Made by a program: the position numbers and the translations under genes | Notes under the pieces: generated by a model | What the model was told of the DNA's origin: nothing | Database searches by the model: none | Seen by the model: only the letters and a program-made list of their open reading frames with translations | Origin: Candidatus Vampirococcus lugosii | GTDB taxonomy: Bacteria > Patescibacteriota > Gracilibacteria > Absconditabacterales > Absconditicoccaceae | Assembly: GCF_018420025.1 (NCBI RefSeq) | Contig: NZ_JAEDAM010000047.1 | Location: 1-7,299 of the forward strand | Length of the DNA stretch: 7,299 nt | Direction of reading: 5' to 3' | Shown: positions 1-7,299 of the stretch, piece by piece | Layout: every line of letters starts with the position of its first letter | Numbering within the stretch: the first letter of the stretch is position 1

Positions 1-72
1 CCTGTAATTCATCTTCAATTGAATCTTCCTGTAATTCATCTTCAATTGAATCTTCTTGTAATTCATCTTCAA
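1..72. repeat. 27-bp tandem repeat with two identical copies plus one partial diverged copy; the array is truncated by the window edge.
   Basis: Positions 1..27 and 28..54 are identical (cctgtaattcatcttcaattgaatctt). Positions 55..72 repeat the first 18 nt with one c>t change. One unit is exactly 9 codons and encodes EDSIEDELQ on the minus strand. Confidence 0.9.
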
Positions 73-127
73 AAACATAATCATCTACTGAATTGCTTTT
101 TAAATCTGTTAATTTAATATTATTCAT
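1..127 (-). CDS. 5' end of a CDS that runs off the left edge. It encodes an acidic protein with 9-aa tandem repeats; function unknown.
   Basis: The ATG is the reverse complement of 125..127, and an in-frame TAA lies just upstream (143..145). The translation MNNIKLTDLKSNSVDDYVFEDELQEDSIEDELQEDSIEDELQ... stays open to position 2. The frame differs from that of the other four genes. No family was recognised. Confidence 0.6.
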   Translation of the reverse strand, partial: MNNIKLTDLKSNSVDDYVFEDELQEDSIEDELQEDSIEDELQ

Positions 128-152
128 ATTTTTTATTTTTATTTATAATCTA

Positions 153-174
153 AAAACAATTTTTTAATTGTTTT
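153..174 (-). promoter_or_regulatory. Inverted repeat aaaacaatt-tttt-aattgtttt between the DUF368 stop and the next start codon. It could be a weak intrinsic terminator, a leader hairpin or an operator.
   Basis: The arms are 9 bp (153..161 and 166..174) with a 4-nt spacer. On the minus strand the hairpin is followed by a 5-T run. It starts 1 nt after the candidate -10 hexamer. The stem has only one G:C pair, so it is weak. Confidence 0.3.
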
Positions 175-175
175 A

Positions 176-203
176 ATTTTATTATTTTTTTTAAATTTGT
201 CAA
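176..203 (-). promoter_or_regulatory. Candidate sigma70-like promoter for the leftmost (partial) gene.
   Basis: On the minus strand there is an exact TTGACA (revcomp of 198..203), a 16-nt spacer, and TAAAAT (revcomp of 176..181), about 50 nt upstream of the ATG at 127. -10-like hexamers are abundant in DNA this AT-rich, so the exact -35 is the main support. Confidence 0.35.
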
Positions 204-225
204 TTTTTTTATATAATATAAATAT

Positions 226-1071
226 TTATTGTTGACTTTTTTTGTTTTTAATGTTTAATAAAATTTTTGGGAAATAAAATGAAATTGAAAATCAAATTAT
301 AAATATAATAATAAGAATTATATATACATATATATTATATATATTTTTAAATGGAATTAAAGTAAAAGATGAAGCTAAAACCATAGCTATTATAATATAA
401 TAAAAATGAGATGCAAAAGATGAATTTAAAATATAATATATAACACGAGCTGATAATATAATTCATATTATAGCTCAAAATCATATTATAAATAACTTAT
501 CAAAAACAAAATCTTTTACAAAAGAAAGTATATTTTCATATTCACCCAAAATAAGCAACATCATAGATCATGAAAATCAAGGTATTATCATGGAAGCGGC
601 TGCAACAAATCAAGAAAAAAAAAGTTTTATATTGTAAATAATTCAATTTGTATCACTATTTGAATATAAATCTCAACTTCAAAAATAAAATAATAAAAGA
701 ACAGAAAATAATCAAATTAAAAAAACTAATATTTTTGAAATTGATAATTTATTATTTGGAATATTTTTATATAAATAAGGAATAGATCATAATATAATTC
801 ATATTATAAAAATATTTGTATAGATTTCATAAGAATCTATAAGTGCAGAAAATATATAAGAGAATATAAATATTCAAATTAATGCTCAAATTCAAATAAT
901 TGATAAGAAAAGAAAATATTTTTTTCTATTTTTAGAATCTGTAATAATATTTGAAATAGATTTTGTTAATTCTTTATATATTCAAAGAATTACCGCCATT
1001 GTTCATCAAGACAATCATGGAATTATATTAGCAATTCAAATAAGCATTCATTTTAATAAATTCAAAAACAT
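226..1071 (-). CDS. DUF368-family polytopic membrane protein, PopT-like, a candidate for undecaprenyl-phosphate translocation/recycling; 281 aa under table 25.
   Basis: The frame is open from ATG (1069..1071) to TAA (226..228) with about 22 in-frame TGAs and no TAA or TAG. The N-terminus reads [35 protein letters not shown]. A second half-repeat signature reads AAASMIIPGFSGSMMLLILGE. The protein is hydrophobic throughout (e.g. IIGIGALIGIFIFSYIFSAL, LIGLFSVLLLFYF). The paired PGxSGG/PGxSGS motifs are the hallmark of DUF368. Confidence 0.85.
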
Positions 1072-1092
1072 TAAATTATATTTAAATATAAA

Positions 1093-2172
1093 TTATTTAT
1101 TATTTTTCATAAGATATAATGCACTTCATAATAAATTTTTATCATTTTTATCAACTGTAACGGAAGTATGTGGGTAAGGTATTCTTATATTATTTTCCAA
1201 AATAGCTTTATAAATATAATGATTTATTTTTCATAATATTACTGGAGGTCAATCCAAAACAACATTAGGATCTATATGGAAACTTGCTCTAATTTCTACT
1301 CAATTTGAAGTATTATTAGTAAAATCACGATCTCATCAACTATCTCAAATTTTACTTATCAAAGCTTTAGTTAATTTTTTATTAGTAACTAGTCAAGAAT
1401 TATTTACTGCATCTATTATAACATCACAAGCTTTTTGAATATCTTCTTCATAATGTATCAAAACAAAAGTTCGTAATATAATACTATCTTCAGAAGTATA
1501 AGTTTTTAATGGATTTGTAATCATATCTAAATTAGGAATTATAACTCTTCTTTTGTCATATATAAGTCTTAATACCGTATATCTAATAGTTATTTCATCA
1601 ATTATACCAAAATATGATTGATTATTTGGTTTTTCTAATTCAACTTTATCTCAAAGTTTAATTTCTTTTGTAAGTAAAAGCATAACTCAAGCAAACATAT
1701 TACCCAATATTTCTCTAAAAGCAAATCATATACCAACAGAAAGTCATCATAACAAAATTCATATATCAAAACCAATTATTTGAAATCAAATAAAAATTGA
1801 AATCAACAATAATGGATAGAAAATCATACTAGAAACTAAATTTCAAGCTCTCTGAGAATAAACATCAACATCATCATCTTCTCAAGCATTTTCATTATCT
1901 GGAATATTAATATTATTAATAAATCTATTTCTAATATAAACTGCGATTATTTTTGAAATAAACATTAAAACTGCAGTTACTAATATTGCAATAATAGCTT
2001 GTATAGCAATAGTAAAAATATTGCTATCAAAAATAGAACTAGAATTAGTATTTACGGTAATTGCTTCTTCAGTTCATTCTCATTGAGCATAAGTTTTAAC
2101 TAAAAATAAGACATTTATCAAAATTATTAAAAATAATTTTATATTTTTAGTATTTAATAAATTTAATTTCAT
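1093..2172 (-). CDS. mscS: MscS-family small-conductance mechanosensitive channel; 359 aa under table 25.
   Basis: The gene runs from ATG 2170..2172 to TAA 1093..1095 with about 19 in-frame TGAs. The core GLSVGIGFAFREILGNMFAGVMLLLTKEIKLGDKVELEKPNNQSYFGIIDEITIRYTVLRLIYDKRRVIIPNLDMITNPLKTY matches the MscS pore helix and beta-domain pattern (G.G.AFA...L.N...G..LL......GD.V......G.I..I..R.T.L......R.IIPN). The N-terminus MKLNLLNTKNIKLFLIILINVLFLVKTYAQG looks like a signal peptide or first TM helix. The C-terminal IRIPYPH motif is typical of the family. Confidence 0.85.
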
Positions 2173-2193
2173 TTTAATATTTATTTTTTTAAA

Positions 2194-5100
2194 TTAAAAG
2201 TTAAATCATCCTAAATTAGGATTTTGGTTTCTATTTCTTTTGTAATCAAGATTATTTGGATCTTCATCTACTTTTTTCTTAGCAGAAACAACATTTTCTT
2301 GTTTAAATATTACATAAAGAACAGATTCTAATTTATCATTACTAATATTTGATATATTATTTGCTATATATGAAGATAATAATTCAAGTCATTGTCTCAT
2401 TTGTGAAGGCATACTTCTATTAATCCCAGTACCAAAACAGTTTTCAAACATAGACATAATTTCTTTTTTTGTTTCTGATTTAGATTTTCAATCACTTTTG
2501 GAGTGTAAAATACTTTGTAAAATATCAGAATATGTATTTGAATGAACATTTACAAACCAAGTAGAATAAACTCACATTATATATTCAAATTTATTTATAT
2601 TTACATCAAATTCATATTTTTTTAGAGTTCAATTAAATATATTCCAAAGTCCACGTCACAAAGGATTATTAAAATCTCTTCAATTATGAGATTTCATACT
2701 AGAATCAGCAAGTTTAGGTCAAATATGTAAAATAGATTTCATATATGGAATAGCTTCATTTGGTTTTAATTTTGAATCATATGGAATATCTTTTCATTTT
2801 TTCAAAACTATATCTTTATATTCTCATAATATTTCTTTAATTTCTTTTTGTTCTTTATTTAGATTTTGTAAATTTTCTAATTTTTTTAATTCAGCAAAAG
2901 CTCAATTATCTAAATCAGAATTTGATAAAAATGAAGATATTTTTGATCAATTAGAAGCCCACCAATAAAGAAATTTACTTTGAATTTTTTCTTTTTTATC
3001 AGCTCCAGAATCAGGAGATATTGTATTCATAGACCAAGATGTAAAACTTGAGAATTCATTAGATCATTTACTAATATAATCAAATAATTTTACTATTTTT
3101 TCAGGACCTTTGTAAGTATTAACAAAAAAACCTACAGGAAAAGAATATGTTCAAGCTATTTTCATATATTCTGTTTTAAGTGTTTCATCCCAATTTAAAT
3201 ATTCTCAAGATATAATAGGTAAAAGCATCATTCAATACCACTTTTGATAATGTCATTCATGATCAACTTTTTCAGAAAGAGCTCTTAATGTTCAAATTTG
3301 TCTAGCTGGCATAGCTCATTTCATAATTCAATTTAAATCATTATAAACCATTTCAAAATTAGATTTACTTGACATATTATTATGCATTTCATCAACTTTA
3401 GACGAACTAAAATTCGTTGATATAGCTCAATCCAAAGCTCATTGAAATTTGGAACCAAAAATTTTTCTCATTTTTTCAGAACCTACTGTATCTTTTATAT
3501 AATCTAATTCAAGTCTTGCTAATTCATTTTGAAGTGTTTCGTTGTCTCAAGTTTTTTTTAATTGTGATATTAGAAAACTTTTATTATTTTGATAAACTTT
3601 TAAATATTCAGGTCACAATATTGCATTAACCCAAGCTCAAGATCATGAATATTTTTTTAATCATCTATAATATGGACCTCATCATTTTTCCAAAGAATGA
3701 AGAAGATATCCAGCAGCTTTTAATTTATCTTTTGAAGATCATTTTTTTTCAAAAACTTCATTTTTTATTACATTAACAATTTCTTTATCATGAACTGCAC
3801 CATCACGAGATAATCTATCTTTATGTTTATTTATTATTGACCAAAGTTTACTATCATATTCAGAGAATGCCTCTTGTCTCAATTCAGAAACAATAGAACC
3901 TGGAATTACAGATGCTATTTTACTATCCAAAAGTGACATATAAAATTGTGATGCCCTAAGTTCATCTTCACTTTTCCATCTTTCCAAATAATTATCTTTT
4001 ATAGATTTAAATGATATTAACATAGCTGAAATTGATAATCCATTACTTTTCATTTTTTTATCAGGATTAGCATTAATTTTATTTTTTAACATTTCGGCAT
4101 CTTCTTTTGTATATGGATTAAGTCATTTTTCTGAACAAAAAATAGAAAATGCATTATAAGACATTTTTTTTTCTTTTGGTGATAGATTTTCATTTCCCAA
4201 AATTATTCAATCTGGCAAATATTTTATATAATATAATAATGGTATTTTTTTTGAATTTCAAGATTCATTATATTCATCATATTCCATTCAAACATAATCA
4301 ATTTGATTATTGTCAGAATCAAAAAATTTTCATCATTTTTCTTTTAAATTCAACCATTTTTCTTTAAAATTTTTGAATCATTTGTAATCTTCCAAGTTTA
4401 TATTTTTTATATATTTCAAAAATTCATCAGAACTATCTATAGTTTTGAATTTCATAGAAACTCAACTTACTGGTTCTTTATTCAAAAAATTAGAAAATTG
4501 TTCATAATTTATTTCTATTTTTTTTGAAAAATATTCATTAGTTTCTCAACAATAAAAATTAGCTTCAATTTTTACTTTTCAATTGTATAAAATTTTAGGT
4601 TCACTTGTTATTTCCATAAATCACCATTGAGATCATCATCATGGATAAATTGATTCTCAAACTCTAAAAGCTAGACTAGATCAAATATTAAATTCTGCAT
4701 CTTTATCTCATTTTATTTTTTTCCAATCATTATTTATTAAAGATAAAGTTTCATTTCAATCCATATTTTCATTAAATTGTAAATCTTCATCAAAAGATTT
4801 TACACTTTCATCTATTGATAATCAATTTGTAAGTAAACCAGATAAATTAAGATATAATAAATCTCATATTTTTTCATTACTAATTTGTAAATTATCATCA
4901 ATAATTCATAAATTTTTAAGTAAATTTAAAACTTCATTATCTCATTGTGTTTGAGAAATTTTTAAATTTAAATTAATTTGCATATTTTCATCTATAAAAA
5001 TTTTTTTTTCATCAAATACTAATTTAGTATATTTATTTCACAAATATAAATTTAATTCTTTTTGATTTGGATTCAATAAATTTGTAATAAATTCTTTATG

Positions 5101-6159
5101 ATTATTTATCATAGATTTTGGTAAAGAAAAATAATTTTCTAATTTGGAAGAAAAAGATGAAGAAAAAAGAATTTCAACAAATTCTTCAAAATCTATTTTT
5201 TTATTATCAATACTAGAAAAGTTATTCAATAAAAATTTCTTTTTTGAATTATCTATTTCAGATTCATCCAAAAGTAAAATATTAGCAATAATATAATTTA
5301 AATCCAAATCTTTTTGATCAAGAGTATCAGAAAACTTATCATCAATATTAAATCATTTTTGATTAAGTTTATCTTTTTGAGATTCAATATATTGTTTATC
5401 TATATTTTTTACTTTATTAAAAAGTTCTTCTCACAAATATTCTTTAATAAAATTTTTTGTATCAAAAATATTAGATAAACCAGAAAAATAATTTTCCATA
5501 TCATCCGTATATTTAATTACCTCACTTTTGCAAGAAGATTTAATGAATCAAGATTGTATATCTTCATTATTATCCAAATTAGTAATAAAATCATTATCTA
5601 AATTAGAAACAAGATCAGATATAGATATAGATTGTTTAGAAATAAAGTTTTTTTGTTCTTCCAAAAGATTATCGGAAATTATTAATTCAGTATTAAAAAA
5701 AACTTGTAATCAATCTATATCTTGGACTTGTCAAATATTTTCAATATAATAATTTAATTCATTTTCTTCTAATCATAATATATAAATTTTTTCTATAAGT
5801 TTATTCTTAATAGTTTGCAAAAATCAATTATGTAAACTATTTTTATATTTTATATAAAAATCTGATGATAAAAAATCATTTGATAAAACATAATCAAATG
5901 TCATTCACATATTACTAAAATCATCTAATATTAAATTTTTATTTCAAGATTTATTTATAATTTGTTTGTAATTATTTATTATATCTTGATCTGAAATATT
6001 GTTTGAACTTATAAAGTTTTTGAAACTATCATAATTTGTAATTTGTGAATTACTATTTTTGTATAATAAAGATATTAATAATTGAGTTTGAATATTAGAA
6101 ATTAATTTATTTCTATTATTTTTTTGTAAAGAATCTAAATTTTTTTGATCTAATTCCAT
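2194..6159 (-). CDS. Giant orphan protein of 1,321 aa under table 25; function unknown and no recognisable domain.
   Basis: A single frame is open from ATG (6157..6159, preceded by an in-frame TAA at 6169..6171) to TAA (2194..2196). It has no TAA or TAG in 1,321 codons of ~25% GC DNA and about 62 in-frame TGAs. It joins the track fragments 5944..6159, 5038..5307 and 3739..4092, which all lie in the same frame. The N-terminus is MELDQKNLDSLQKNNRNKLISNIQ... and the C-terminus is ...DYKRNRNQNPNLGGFNF. I saw no Walker A motif, no HExxH, no N-terminal signal peptide and no obvious TM helix. Confidence 0.85.
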
Positions 6160-6197
6160 TTTATAATTTTATATTTTATATATTAAAATTACTATTA

Positions 6198-6225
6198 ATA
6201 ATAAATAATTATTATTTAATGTCAA
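6198..6225 (-). promoter_or_regulatory. Candidate sigma70-like promoter in the 84-nt tatD/giant-ORF spacer.
   Basis: On the minus strand there is an exact TTGACA (revcomp of 6220..6225), a 16-nt spacer, and TATTAT (revcomp of 6198..6203), about 40 nt upstream of the ATG at 6159. It sits in the only sizeable intergenic gap inside the array. Confidence 0.35.
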
Positions 6226-6243
6226 TTTAAAAATTATTTTATA

Positions 6244-7044
6244 TTATCAATATAATGCAAAAAAATTATCTTCTATAATATCTATATAATTATCTAAATC
6301 ATAATCAATTAAGTTTGCTGTATATTCATAAATATATTTAATATAAGATGAATCATTTATTTTTCATCTATATGGATGTGGTGTTAGATATGGAGCATCA
6401 GTTTCTATTAAAATATTTTGTTTTTCTGTTGCCAAAAAAGATTCTCTAATGTTTTCTGCTTTTGGAAAAGTAATATTTCAAGTATATCATATCCAAATAT
6501 TTTCAAAATTTTCTTGTAATACATTAATTTCATTTGCTCAATATCACCAACAATGAAAATAAATTTTTAATTTTGGAAAATTTTTAATTATATCATATGT
6601 AGACTCAAAATCATCTCTAGAATGAATTATTACTGGTAAATCTAATTTTTGAGCTAATTCGCATTGCATCATAAAAAATTTTTTTTGACTTGATAGAGTT
6701 TCTGATTTACTTGAATAATGAACATCAATACCACATTCACCTATAGCATAAATATATTTTATATTTTTGTTGTAAAATTGTTCCATTTCATTCAAAATAT
6801 TTTCAAATTGATATGGATATATATTTTCATTTGCTACCAAACTTGGATGATATCAAATACTAGAAAATAATTGTAATGATGTATTATTATTTTTTTGTAT
6901 TTCTACAGCTTTTAAAGCCCGATCCATATCTACTGCCACATTCATTAATCATTTTCATCAATTTTCTTCAAATTTTTTTAAAAAATATTCATAGTCTGCA
7001 AATAATTGTTCAGAATTTAAGTGTGTATGAGAATCAAAATACAT
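6244..7044 (-). CDS. tatD: TatD/YabD-family metal-dependent hydrolase (DNase); 266 aa under table 25.
   Basis: The gene runs from ATG 7042..7044 (in-frame TAA at 7051..7053) to TAA 6244..6246 with 10 in-frame TGAs. The sequence reads MYFDSHTHLNSEQ (HxH metal site) ...SSIGYHP...AIGECGIDVHY...LPVIIHSRD...YFHCWGYG...IGYTGNITFPKA...[28 protein letters not shown]. The track ORF 6544..6840 is the internal TGA-free segment. Confidence 0.9.
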
Positions 7045-7250
7045 ATTTTTTTATATTATTAATAAGAATTAAATTATTTAATAAATATTTATTTATAATA
7101 AATATTTGTATAAAGTATTTTATACATATTTAAATAAATAGCAATATATTTTGAATTTTTTTGTAATAGTTTATTTAATTTAGTATTTTATAAAAAATTA
7201 ATTAATGTAAAAAGACTTGAATATATATTTATTTTCTTTATATATTTCAA

Positions 7251-7272
7251 AACTCAATTAATTAATTGAGTT
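7251..7272. other. Perfect 22-bp palindrome aactcaattaattaattgagtt. It could be the terminator of an upstream minus-strand gene or a dimeric-regulator operator.
   Basis: The 22-mer equals its own reverse complement. On the minus strand the stem runs into TTTT-G-AAA. A minus-strand frame is open from the right edge (...IKYTLNMIYNSIN) and stops at TAA 7258..7260, inside the palindrome. This fits a gene end with a terminator, but only 13 codons are visible. Confidence 0.4.
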
Positions 7273-7299
7273 ATATATCATATTTAGTGTATATTTAAT

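Follow-up and report, generated by a model that had tools for sequence, protein, structure and literature searches.

A large protein of Candidatus Vampirococcus lugosii belongs to a family of predicted soluble proteins, often encoded next to MscS-type channel genes, in TGA-recoded Absconditabacteria and Gracilibacteria

Introduction

Large hypothetical proteins are common in the genomes of Candidate Phyla Radiation (CPR) bacteria. Cytoplasmic regulatory parts added to mechanosensitive channels are found in the MscS family, in which MscK, the cyclic-nucleotide-gated bCNG channels and the plant MSL proteins carry them fused to the channel polypeptide itself. Two further groups of large proteins bear comparison with the protein described here: the giant proteins of Vampirococcus, inferred to be membrane-located and proposed as host-attachment factors (PMC8080830), and the large, multidomain polyvalent proteins of phages and conjugative elements (PMC5512222). 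Here, we analysed a stretch of 7,299 nucleotides (nt) from Candidatus Vampirococcus lugosii (assembly GCF_018420025.1, contig NZ_JAEDAM010000047.1, positions 1 to 7,299 of the forward strand), hereafter the window, more than half of which is taken up by one reading frame on the minus strand (2194-6159). We refer to its product of 1,321 amino acids (aa) as protein X. A preliminary description of the window had presented it as a hidden, orphan, lineage-specific protein of unknown function, encoded by a recoded genome. We report that protein X belongs to a previously undescribed family, which is sizeable, under constraint and lineage-restricted, and that the gene of an MscS-type channel is the only conserved neighbour of this family.

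Results

Reading frame and genetic code of the gene

The minus strand of the window is free of TAA and TAG codons over 1,324 codons (2194-6168) and contains 62 in-frame TGA codons over this length. The first ATG, at 6159, lies three codons past the in-frame upstream stop, and the frame closes with a TAA at 2194-2196, yielding a coding sequence of 3,966 nt (2194-6159) and a protein of 1,321 aa under code 25. With a G+C content of 20.2% in the window, TAA or TAG is expected about every 12 codons from the base composition of the minus strand, and the longest open frame in shuffled sequences averaged 92 codons, with a maximum of 149 (n = 300). Read with table 11, the same strand offers pieces of 71, 89, 117, 50 and 41 aa only. 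The preliminary description had anticipated this fragmentation, and its account of the frame itself, with a clean ATG, an upstream in-frame stop and an end 21 nt before mscS, proved correct on the minus strand.

A second copy of the gene, on contig L002, differs from that of the window at a single position out of 3,966 and is the sole close relative of X. The ratio of nonsynonymous to synonymous substitution rates (dN/dS) was not computable for X itself, because this copy is near-identical and synonymous sites are saturated with respect to the next relative, which is 43% identical. In the closest pair available within the family, L050 and L053 (81% identical), dN/dS is 0.28, with values of 0.30 in the N-terminal half and 0.26 in the C-terminal half. 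All complete frames at homologous loci, spanning 1,364 to 2,218 codons, are uninterrupted. Two checks of the gene call had been set beforehand, and both came out in favour of a gene: the homologous loci show no TAA or TAG interruption, and dN/dS in the family is about 0.3. We conclude that X is a real, intact code-25 gene.

The meaning of TGA was assessed in the neighbouring genes and inside the gene of X. Decoding TGA as glycine rather than tryptophan raised the Pfam score of all three recognisable neighbours, from 168.4 to 195.4 bits for TatD, from 29.4 to 37.5 bits for MscS and from 77.2 to 145.2 bits for DUF368. In a codon alignment of X with two relatives for which the DNA was readable, TGA codons of X stand opposite GGN codons 11 times and opposite TGG not once, GGN codons of X stand opposite TGA codons of the relatives 15 times, and TGG stands opposite TGG 22 times and never opposite TGA. 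Taken together, the neighbour-gene scores and the codon correspondences inside X show that TGA encodes glycine (code 25) and not tryptophan, bearing out the recoded lineage proposed in the preliminary description, which had called for translation with table 25. The protein contains 79 glycines, 62 of which are specified by TGA and 17 by GGN. Sense TGA codons are present in each of the 26 related frames that were read, at 10 to 102 per frame. No tRNA gene, rRNA gene or other Rfam family that would place the window directly in a lineage was detected in it.

In public collections, the copy of X on L002 (P0001) and most database relatives carry tryptophan at every TGA, and the tryptophan content of these mistranslated proteins reaches 3-7%, compared with about 1% in correct translations. 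This mistranslation corrupts the conserved glycine motifs and probably hampers family building and structure prediction across the whole lineage.

Members and range of the family

Relatives of X were sought by an exhaustive HMMER scan with a profile of its C-terminal 760 residues, built on the tryptophan-mistranslated database sequences; word-indexed protein searches were nearly blind (two matches each) with this AT-rich, low-complexity query. At E <= 1e-3 the scan retrieved 58 clusters of relatives (clustered at 50% identity); 45 of them reach E <= 1e-10 and 29 reach E <= 1e-30. Most clusters consist of proteins of 1,300 to 2,300 aa that match within their C-terminal ~750 residues. Protein X itself matches the family profile with E = 0 and keeps 42 of the 44 positions that are conserved in at least 80% of the family, demonstrating that it is a full family member.

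P0001, the public 1,321-aa product of contig L002, is protein X with tryptophan at each TGA. Two of the more distant relatives have records translated by NCBI with table 25: P0060 (WP_231176344.1/UFX83276.1; 1,568 aa), from Candidatus Absconditicoccus praedator, and P0007 (MEF2176143.1; 1,523 aa), from a metagenome-assembled genome (MAG) of Ca. Absconditabacteria. Identity to X is 38.6% over 840 aa (residues 479-1318 of X) for P0060, and 28.6% over 865 aa for P0007. Both share with X its three-part architecture and an MscS gene directly downstream, and differ from it in having larger N-terminal regions, which make them longer, and other upstream neighbours. Since both are annotated only as hypothetical proteins, they bring no functional information.

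The family was also sought at the DNA level, with a TGA-aware pattern (GGN or TGA at glycine positions) built on its most conserved motif, each match being confirmed by tblastn. This yielded 23 further loci, 12 in species-representative genomes and 11 in metagenomes; the record titles of the 12 representatives label them as Absconditabacterales, SR1, Gracilibacteria or "Peribacteria" MAGs. About half of the matches to the pattern came from unrelated bacteria by chance and were dropped after tblastn. An earlier genome scan, with peptide patterns that were not hand-made, returned no family loci. The DNA pattern had no match in the viral contigs of IMG/VR, nor did tblastn of the protein in 50,697 phage records. 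As sampled, the family is therefore confined to TGA-recoded Absconditabacteria and Gracilibacteria. The lineage-specific character claimed for X thus largely stands, being limited to recoded CPR bacteria, but its status as an orphan does not, given the 58 clusters of relatives. Nor was the protein really hidden: its 1,321-aa product was already public, with tryptophan at TGA, and NCBI lists relatives as "hypothetical protein" under table 25.

Gene neighbourhood

In the window, X lies in a co-directional series of genes on the minus strand, in the order tatD, X, mscS and DUF368, with spacers of 84, 21 and 21 nt. The gene for a TatD-family hydrolase (6244-7044; PF01026, E = 1.4e-57) precedes X. 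The MscS-family mechanosensitive channel gene (1093-2172; 359 aa; PF00924, E = 2.6e-9) has its ATG at 2172, 21 nt past the stop of X, and is followed, 21 nt past its own stop, by a DUF368/VCA0040-like gene (226-1071; PF04018, E = 3.2e-42), resembling undecaprenyl-phosphate translocases, which is the last gene of the cluster.

Across the family, an mscS gene is found directly downstream and on the same strand in 10 of the 18 loci that could be assessed: the window with its near-identical copy L002, L001, L003 (A. praedator), L004, L006 (a long form with an HExxH motif, see below), L008, L025, L027, L032 and L056. L055 and L019 are the same contig. Between called genes, the distance from the X relative to mscS is 19-24 nt in the window, L003 and L004, and 137-144 nt in L001 and L006. 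The mscS-linked relatives are 24-43% identical to X, have G+C contents of 20-43% and include long HExxH forms. In its branch of the family, X shows a persistent link to an MscS-type channel gene. Pairwise identity among the linked MscS proteins is 36-59%, which makes them better conserved than X.

By contrast, the other neighbours change in almost every locus. The gene upstream of the X homologue encodes TatD, a class-I tRNA synthetase, an M16 peptidase or a glycosyltransferase, and the gene after mscS varies as well. By tblastn, tatD was detected beside an X relative only at the near-identical L002, and not at L032, the closest distinct relative (43% identical); a DUF368 gene accompanies mscS elsewhere only in A. 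praedator, where it lies on the opposite strand. Of the tatD-X-mscS-DUF368 synteny put forward for comparison in the preliminary description, the X-mscS pair is hence conserved, whereas tatD and DUF368 are not.

The A. praedator locus (L003; CP054059.1, 813066-837772) holds the X relative and mscS together with DUF368, a sortase, an M23 peptidase, a DUF87/TraG-like ATPase and Lgt, an envelope- and secretion-flavoured neighbourhood that was absent from the other loci looked at. At loci that have no mscS, the neighbours are unrelated housekeeping genes, which encode PriA-like, MnmA, Dus and sigma-70 proteins, peptidyl-tRNA hydrolase, prolyl-tRNA synthetase (ProRS), UPF0176-rhodanese or an M23 peptidase. 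In two of these divergent loci, L007 (13650-14759) and L052 (5653-6768), the UPF0176-rhodanese gene lies immediately downstream on the opposite strand, which suggests a second, local conserved arrangement.

Several features of the window surround this gene series. A promoter-like TTGACA-16 nt-TATTAT element (6198-6225, minus strand; 11 of 12 consensus positions) is located in the 84-nt spacer between tatD and X, 39 nt upstream of the start of X. It is one of the two joint-best sigma-70-like sites (11/12), the other lying at 176-203, in the spacer upstream of the left-edge gene, also on the minus strand. The total of promoter-like sites in the window does not exceed that of shuffled sequences, and a promoter upstream of X is at most suggestive. 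No terminator-like site was found in the window. The spacers at 1072-1092 and 2173-2193 measure exactly 21 nt each, follow TAA stops and, apart from flanking codons, consist of A and T only, with no Shine-Dalgarno-like purine run visible in either. The left-edge gene (1-127, minus strand) starts with an ATG at 127 and runs off the left edge; a 27-nt tandem repeat covers 1-72 in 2.7 copies (97% match) and translates into acidic 9-residue repeats ...FEDELQEDSIEDELQEDSIEDELQ. At its N-terminus the MscS protein of the window has a signal-peptide-like hydrophobic segment, MKLNLLNTKNIKLFLIILINVLFLVKTYAQ, with an acidic stretch between it and the membrane helices.

Domain architecture and predicted structure

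Protein X is predicted to consist of three parts, a variable helical N-terminus, two small beta modules and a large all-helical domain. The N-terminal variable region (aa 1-478; 4726-6159, minus strand) is rich in N, K, S, D and I and predicted to be mostly helical. It is weakly alignable across the family, at about 15-20% identity, and the similarity of X to P0060 in this region amounts to 26% over 195 aa. For the beta-rich region (aa ~483-698; 4066-4713, minus strand), which holds the sequence SLAFRVGESIYPGGGSQWGFMEI, the prediction is a pair of small beta modules with short helices. It starts at a motif W..(I/L).GD, which marks a sharp boundary inside the proteins of the family, is represented in X by G484-D485 and is present in at least 40 members. 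The C-terminal all-helical domain (aa ~710-1308; 2236-4032, minus strand), with about 35 predicted helices, is the best-conserved part of the protein. Six sequence islands had been singled out in the preliminary description. All six are found in the table-25 translation, five of them in the helical domain.

The most conserved motif of the family, by column counts in an alignment of 45 sequences, spans aa 814-849 (3613-3720, minus strand) and reads KAAGYLLHSLEKGGGPYYRGLKKYSGSGAWVNAILG in X; one of the six islands, HSLEKGGGPYYRGLKKYSGSGAWVNAILGPEY, corresponds to it. Within this motif, Y830, R832, L834 and W843 are nearly invariant in the same alignment, and further near-invariant residues are K780, K814, E884, D1027 and Y1114. 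The family pattern of this motif in the helical domain, which X carries at aa 814-849, is KAAGY..(Y/F)A.E...PY.R.L..Y.G.G.WV.A(L/I)LG.

The conserved region was modelled with AlphaFold (AF2) on residues 700-1568 of the A. praedator relative, which is 39% identical to X, using 45 family sequences. The model reaches a mean predicted local distance difference test score (pLDDT) of 85.6 and a predicted template modelling score (pTM) of 0.68, with 453 residues at or above 90; the pLDDT of the helical domain is mostly above 90, and residues 16-235 of the model form strands with a pLDDT mostly of 65-95. The N-terminal region of the same relative was modelled with a pLDDT of 59 and is mostly helical, with good confidence at about 70-200 and 300-440 and values below 50 at 486-697.

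By simple hydropathy, X appears to be soluble. Its Kyte-Doolittle hydropathy does not exceed 1.16 over any 19-residue window, and neither a signal peptide nor a transmembrane helix was recognised by simple hydropathy, no dedicated predictor having been run. The same measure, applied to 41 long family members, found no transmembrane-like segment or hydrophobic N-terminus, bar three explainable exceptions; the one N-terminal hydrophobic segment among them is likely due to a mis-called start. X contains four cysteines, and its translation has no HExxH motif. On each of these points, namely the four cysteines, the absence of HExxH, and the lack of a signal peptide or transmembrane helices, the preliminary description was accurate.

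Searches with X returned no match in Pfam (E <= 0.1), NCBIfam (E <= 1), PHROGs or PADLOC, and scanning 27 family members singly gave isolated, single-member chance matches only. A lenient Pfam search (E <= 10) with the HExxH module, the beta region and the helical domain returned only noise, and phmmer found nothing among all PDB sequences. Two profile matches in the PDB, 'PP507' and 'DP622' (E = 2e-5), were rejected as compositional, since they fall in the low-complexity helical N-terminus with poor alignment accuracy; both look like designed Lys/Glu/Leu-rich helical-repeat proteins. At the level of fold, neither PDB nor BFVD yielded a Foldseek match to the conserved-region model at E <= 1e-3, and the N-terminal model had no match either (best E = 0.87). 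Weak similarities of the beta region to Tudor/Agenet-type barrels had a probability of at most 0.41. In BFVD, weak and non-significant matches comprised a "KTSC and metallopeptidase-like" phage protein (E = 0.085), polyvalent proteins and tape-measure proteins. The top PDB matches of the helical domain, with its ~35 stacked helices, were alpha-solenoid (HEAT/ARM-like) scaffolds such as karyopherins, exportins and cullins, but these were non-significant (best E = 0.046, others up to ~1; TM-score <= 0.13; 9-13% identity). No repeat periodicity was detected in the sequence, and the alpha-solenoid resemblance would be one of general shape only. The earlier statement that X fits no characterised family therefore holds for sequence, solved-structure and fold searches alike, and we regard the absence of a known relative as provisional.

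Long relatives with an HExxH module

In twelve long members of the family (P0024-P0028, P0030-P0032, P0036, P0037, P0040 and P0049, 1,486-2,278 aa; for instance at L006, 7719-14366), about 250-340 aa are inserted where the N-terminal region meets the beta modules. The insertion contains the motifs AW[IV]xxGx[IV][FY] and HExxHR, the latter followed after 35-45 residues by an invariant Glu in xExLCxIAE. Zincin-like metallopeptidases (MPTases) are defined by HExxH in one helix together with a Glu in the helix that follows, which binds zinc (PMC5512222), and the insertion fits this definition at the level of its motifs. Several of these long members show, by eye, a further conserved stretch after the module (~'..vvLP...G...LG..la....yL'). 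Long forms such as P0024, P0026 and P0036 (1,870-2,280 aa) share the beta modules and the C-terminal helical domain with X, and P0024 has an mscS gene directly downstream. In X and its closer relatives, unlike in these, there is a gap where the insertion would stand. With neither an HExxH motif nor the module, X is not a peptidase of this kind. Judged from its motifs, the family scaffold appears able to carry an enzyme, in the long HExxH forms; X itself has no recognisable catalytic motif.

Discussion

Persistent tight pairing of two genes amid changing neighbours is a classic signature of functional coupling. Since the X-mscS pair is kept while the other neighbours change, our best guess, which we hold tentatively, is that X acts as a soluble cytoplasmic partner of the adjacent MscS-type channel, as a scaffold or a gating regulator. 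X would be co-transcribed with the channel gene that starts 21 nt past its stop, in keeping with the promoter-like site upstream of X and the lack of a terminator-like site in the window, and would act on the channel at the cytoplasmic side of the membrane; the binding surface may lie in the conserved helical domain, and lineage-specific contacts may come from the variable N-terminus. Several observations speak against this proposal. The link to MscS is one of gene order alone, and eight of the 18 assessable loci (L005, L007, L022, L050-L053 and L057) have no downstream MscS; this absence was scored at the locus, and in about half of the lineages sampled the family therefore works with no channel gene beside it. 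The near-invariant polar residues K780, K814, Y830, R832, E884, D1027 and Y1114 would suit an enzyme no less than a binding surface, and the predicted structure is that of a relative 39% identical to X rather than of X.

The MscS-less loci also bear on a second reading, in which X is a core cytoplasmic scaffold or machine component and the adjacency to mscS is an inherited operon arrangement that carries no functional meaning. This is possible but doubtful. It would account for the gene sitting among housekeeping genes in roughly half of the assessable loci, for a widespread family under purifying selection, and for a helical domain that most resembles, non-significantly, alpha-solenoid scaffolds. 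Inheritance of an operon explains less easily why X-mscS is the sole pair kept as other neighbours change, in relatives that share only 24-43% identity with X, long HExxH forms among them, and why the gap between called genes measures 19-24 nt at three loci and 137-144 nt at two others.

The conserved residues raise the question of whether X could instead be an enzyme whose catalytic domain is all-helical and of a new kind, with the cell envelope as a possible site of action. The near-invariant polar and aromatic residues K780, K814, Y830, R832, W843, E884, D1027 and Y1114 of the helical domain are concentrated in a few motifs, and some loci have envelope genes nearby, namely DUF368 in the window, and DUF368, the sortase, the M23 peptidase and Lgt in A. 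praedator. We nevertheless consider an enzyme unlikely: no enzyme family was matched by sequence or fold, the envelope genes are not kept as neighbours from locus to locus, and, with no signal peptide on X, a substrate from the envelope could only be a cytoplasmic one.

Less probable still is a role as a host-interaction or predation effector, delivered to prey in analogy to polyvalent proteins. Relatives come from predatory or episymbiotic lineages such as A. praedator, whose name and complete genome record (CP054059.1) suggest a cultured predator, a point not confirmed from the literature. The HExxH...E module of the long members fits the zincin-like MPTase motif (PMC5512222), the weak BFVD matches include the KTSC/metallopeptidase-like phage protein (E = 0.085) and polyvalent proteins, and a role in host attachment has been proposed for the giant proteins of Vampirococcus (PMC8080830). 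Polyvalent proteins do resemble the X family in being large and multidomain, and in the zincin-like motif of its long relatives. X, by contrast, has neither the HExxH module nor any MPTase motif, is a chromosomal gene among housekeeping genes rather than on a mobile element, and has no family members on the viral contigs or in the phage genomes searched; every fold match was non-significant, and the protein differs from the membrane-located giant proteins of Vampirococcus in having no signal or transmembrane segment. Finally, that the frame at 2194-6159 is decaying or non-coding DNA, or that its code is table 4 (TGA as tryptophan) as in Mollicutes, is practically inconceivable and already refuted by the frame, family, dN/dS, fold and code results: the frame does fall into short fragments under table 11 gene calling, and public pipelines do put tryptophan at TGA in X, but it is about nine times as long as the longest shuffled frame, 58 homologous clusters and intact homologous frames accompany it with a dN/dS of about 0.3 and a confident fold prediction, TGA never stands opposite TGG and repeatedly opposite GGN, and table 25 performs better on all three neighbours.

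The genomes concerned are tiny, about 1.1 Mb in A. praedator, yet 4-7 kb are spent on a gene of the X family that is under purifying selection, so that this gene is likely important for predatory or episymbiotic life. Most pipelines miss or mistranslate the family, either by breaking it into table-11 fragments or by placing tryptophan at its TGA glycines, which is probably why it has no Pfam entry. What is new here is the family itself, the structure model, the proof of the glycine code inside the gene, the HExxH relatives and the conserved X-MscS pair, which together turn an uncharacterised protein into a testable hypothesis. A confident fold that has no relatives, paired with a channel gene, makes the family worth following up.

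A bolder form of the favoured proposal, partnership with the channel, is that, in predatory or episymbiotic CPR bacteria recoded at TGA, the X family constitutes an obligatory cytoplasmic subunit, of 150-250 kDa, which docks on the cytoplasmic cage of a specialised MscS-type channel and controls the opening of that channel. We regard this as a long shot. If it were true, an osmotic safety valve could become a regulated conduit during feeding on prey, to which the zincin-bearing long forms would add proteolytic control, and a universal channel family would gain a new type of accessory subunit, with a fold that has no known relatives. The closest parallels are then MscK, the bCNG channels and the MSL proteins, which resemble what is proposed for X in that an MscS-type pore would be coupled to a large cytoplasmic regulatory element. 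X would differ from them in that the candidate partner is a separate protein of 1,300-2,200 aa, encoded upstream of the channel gene.

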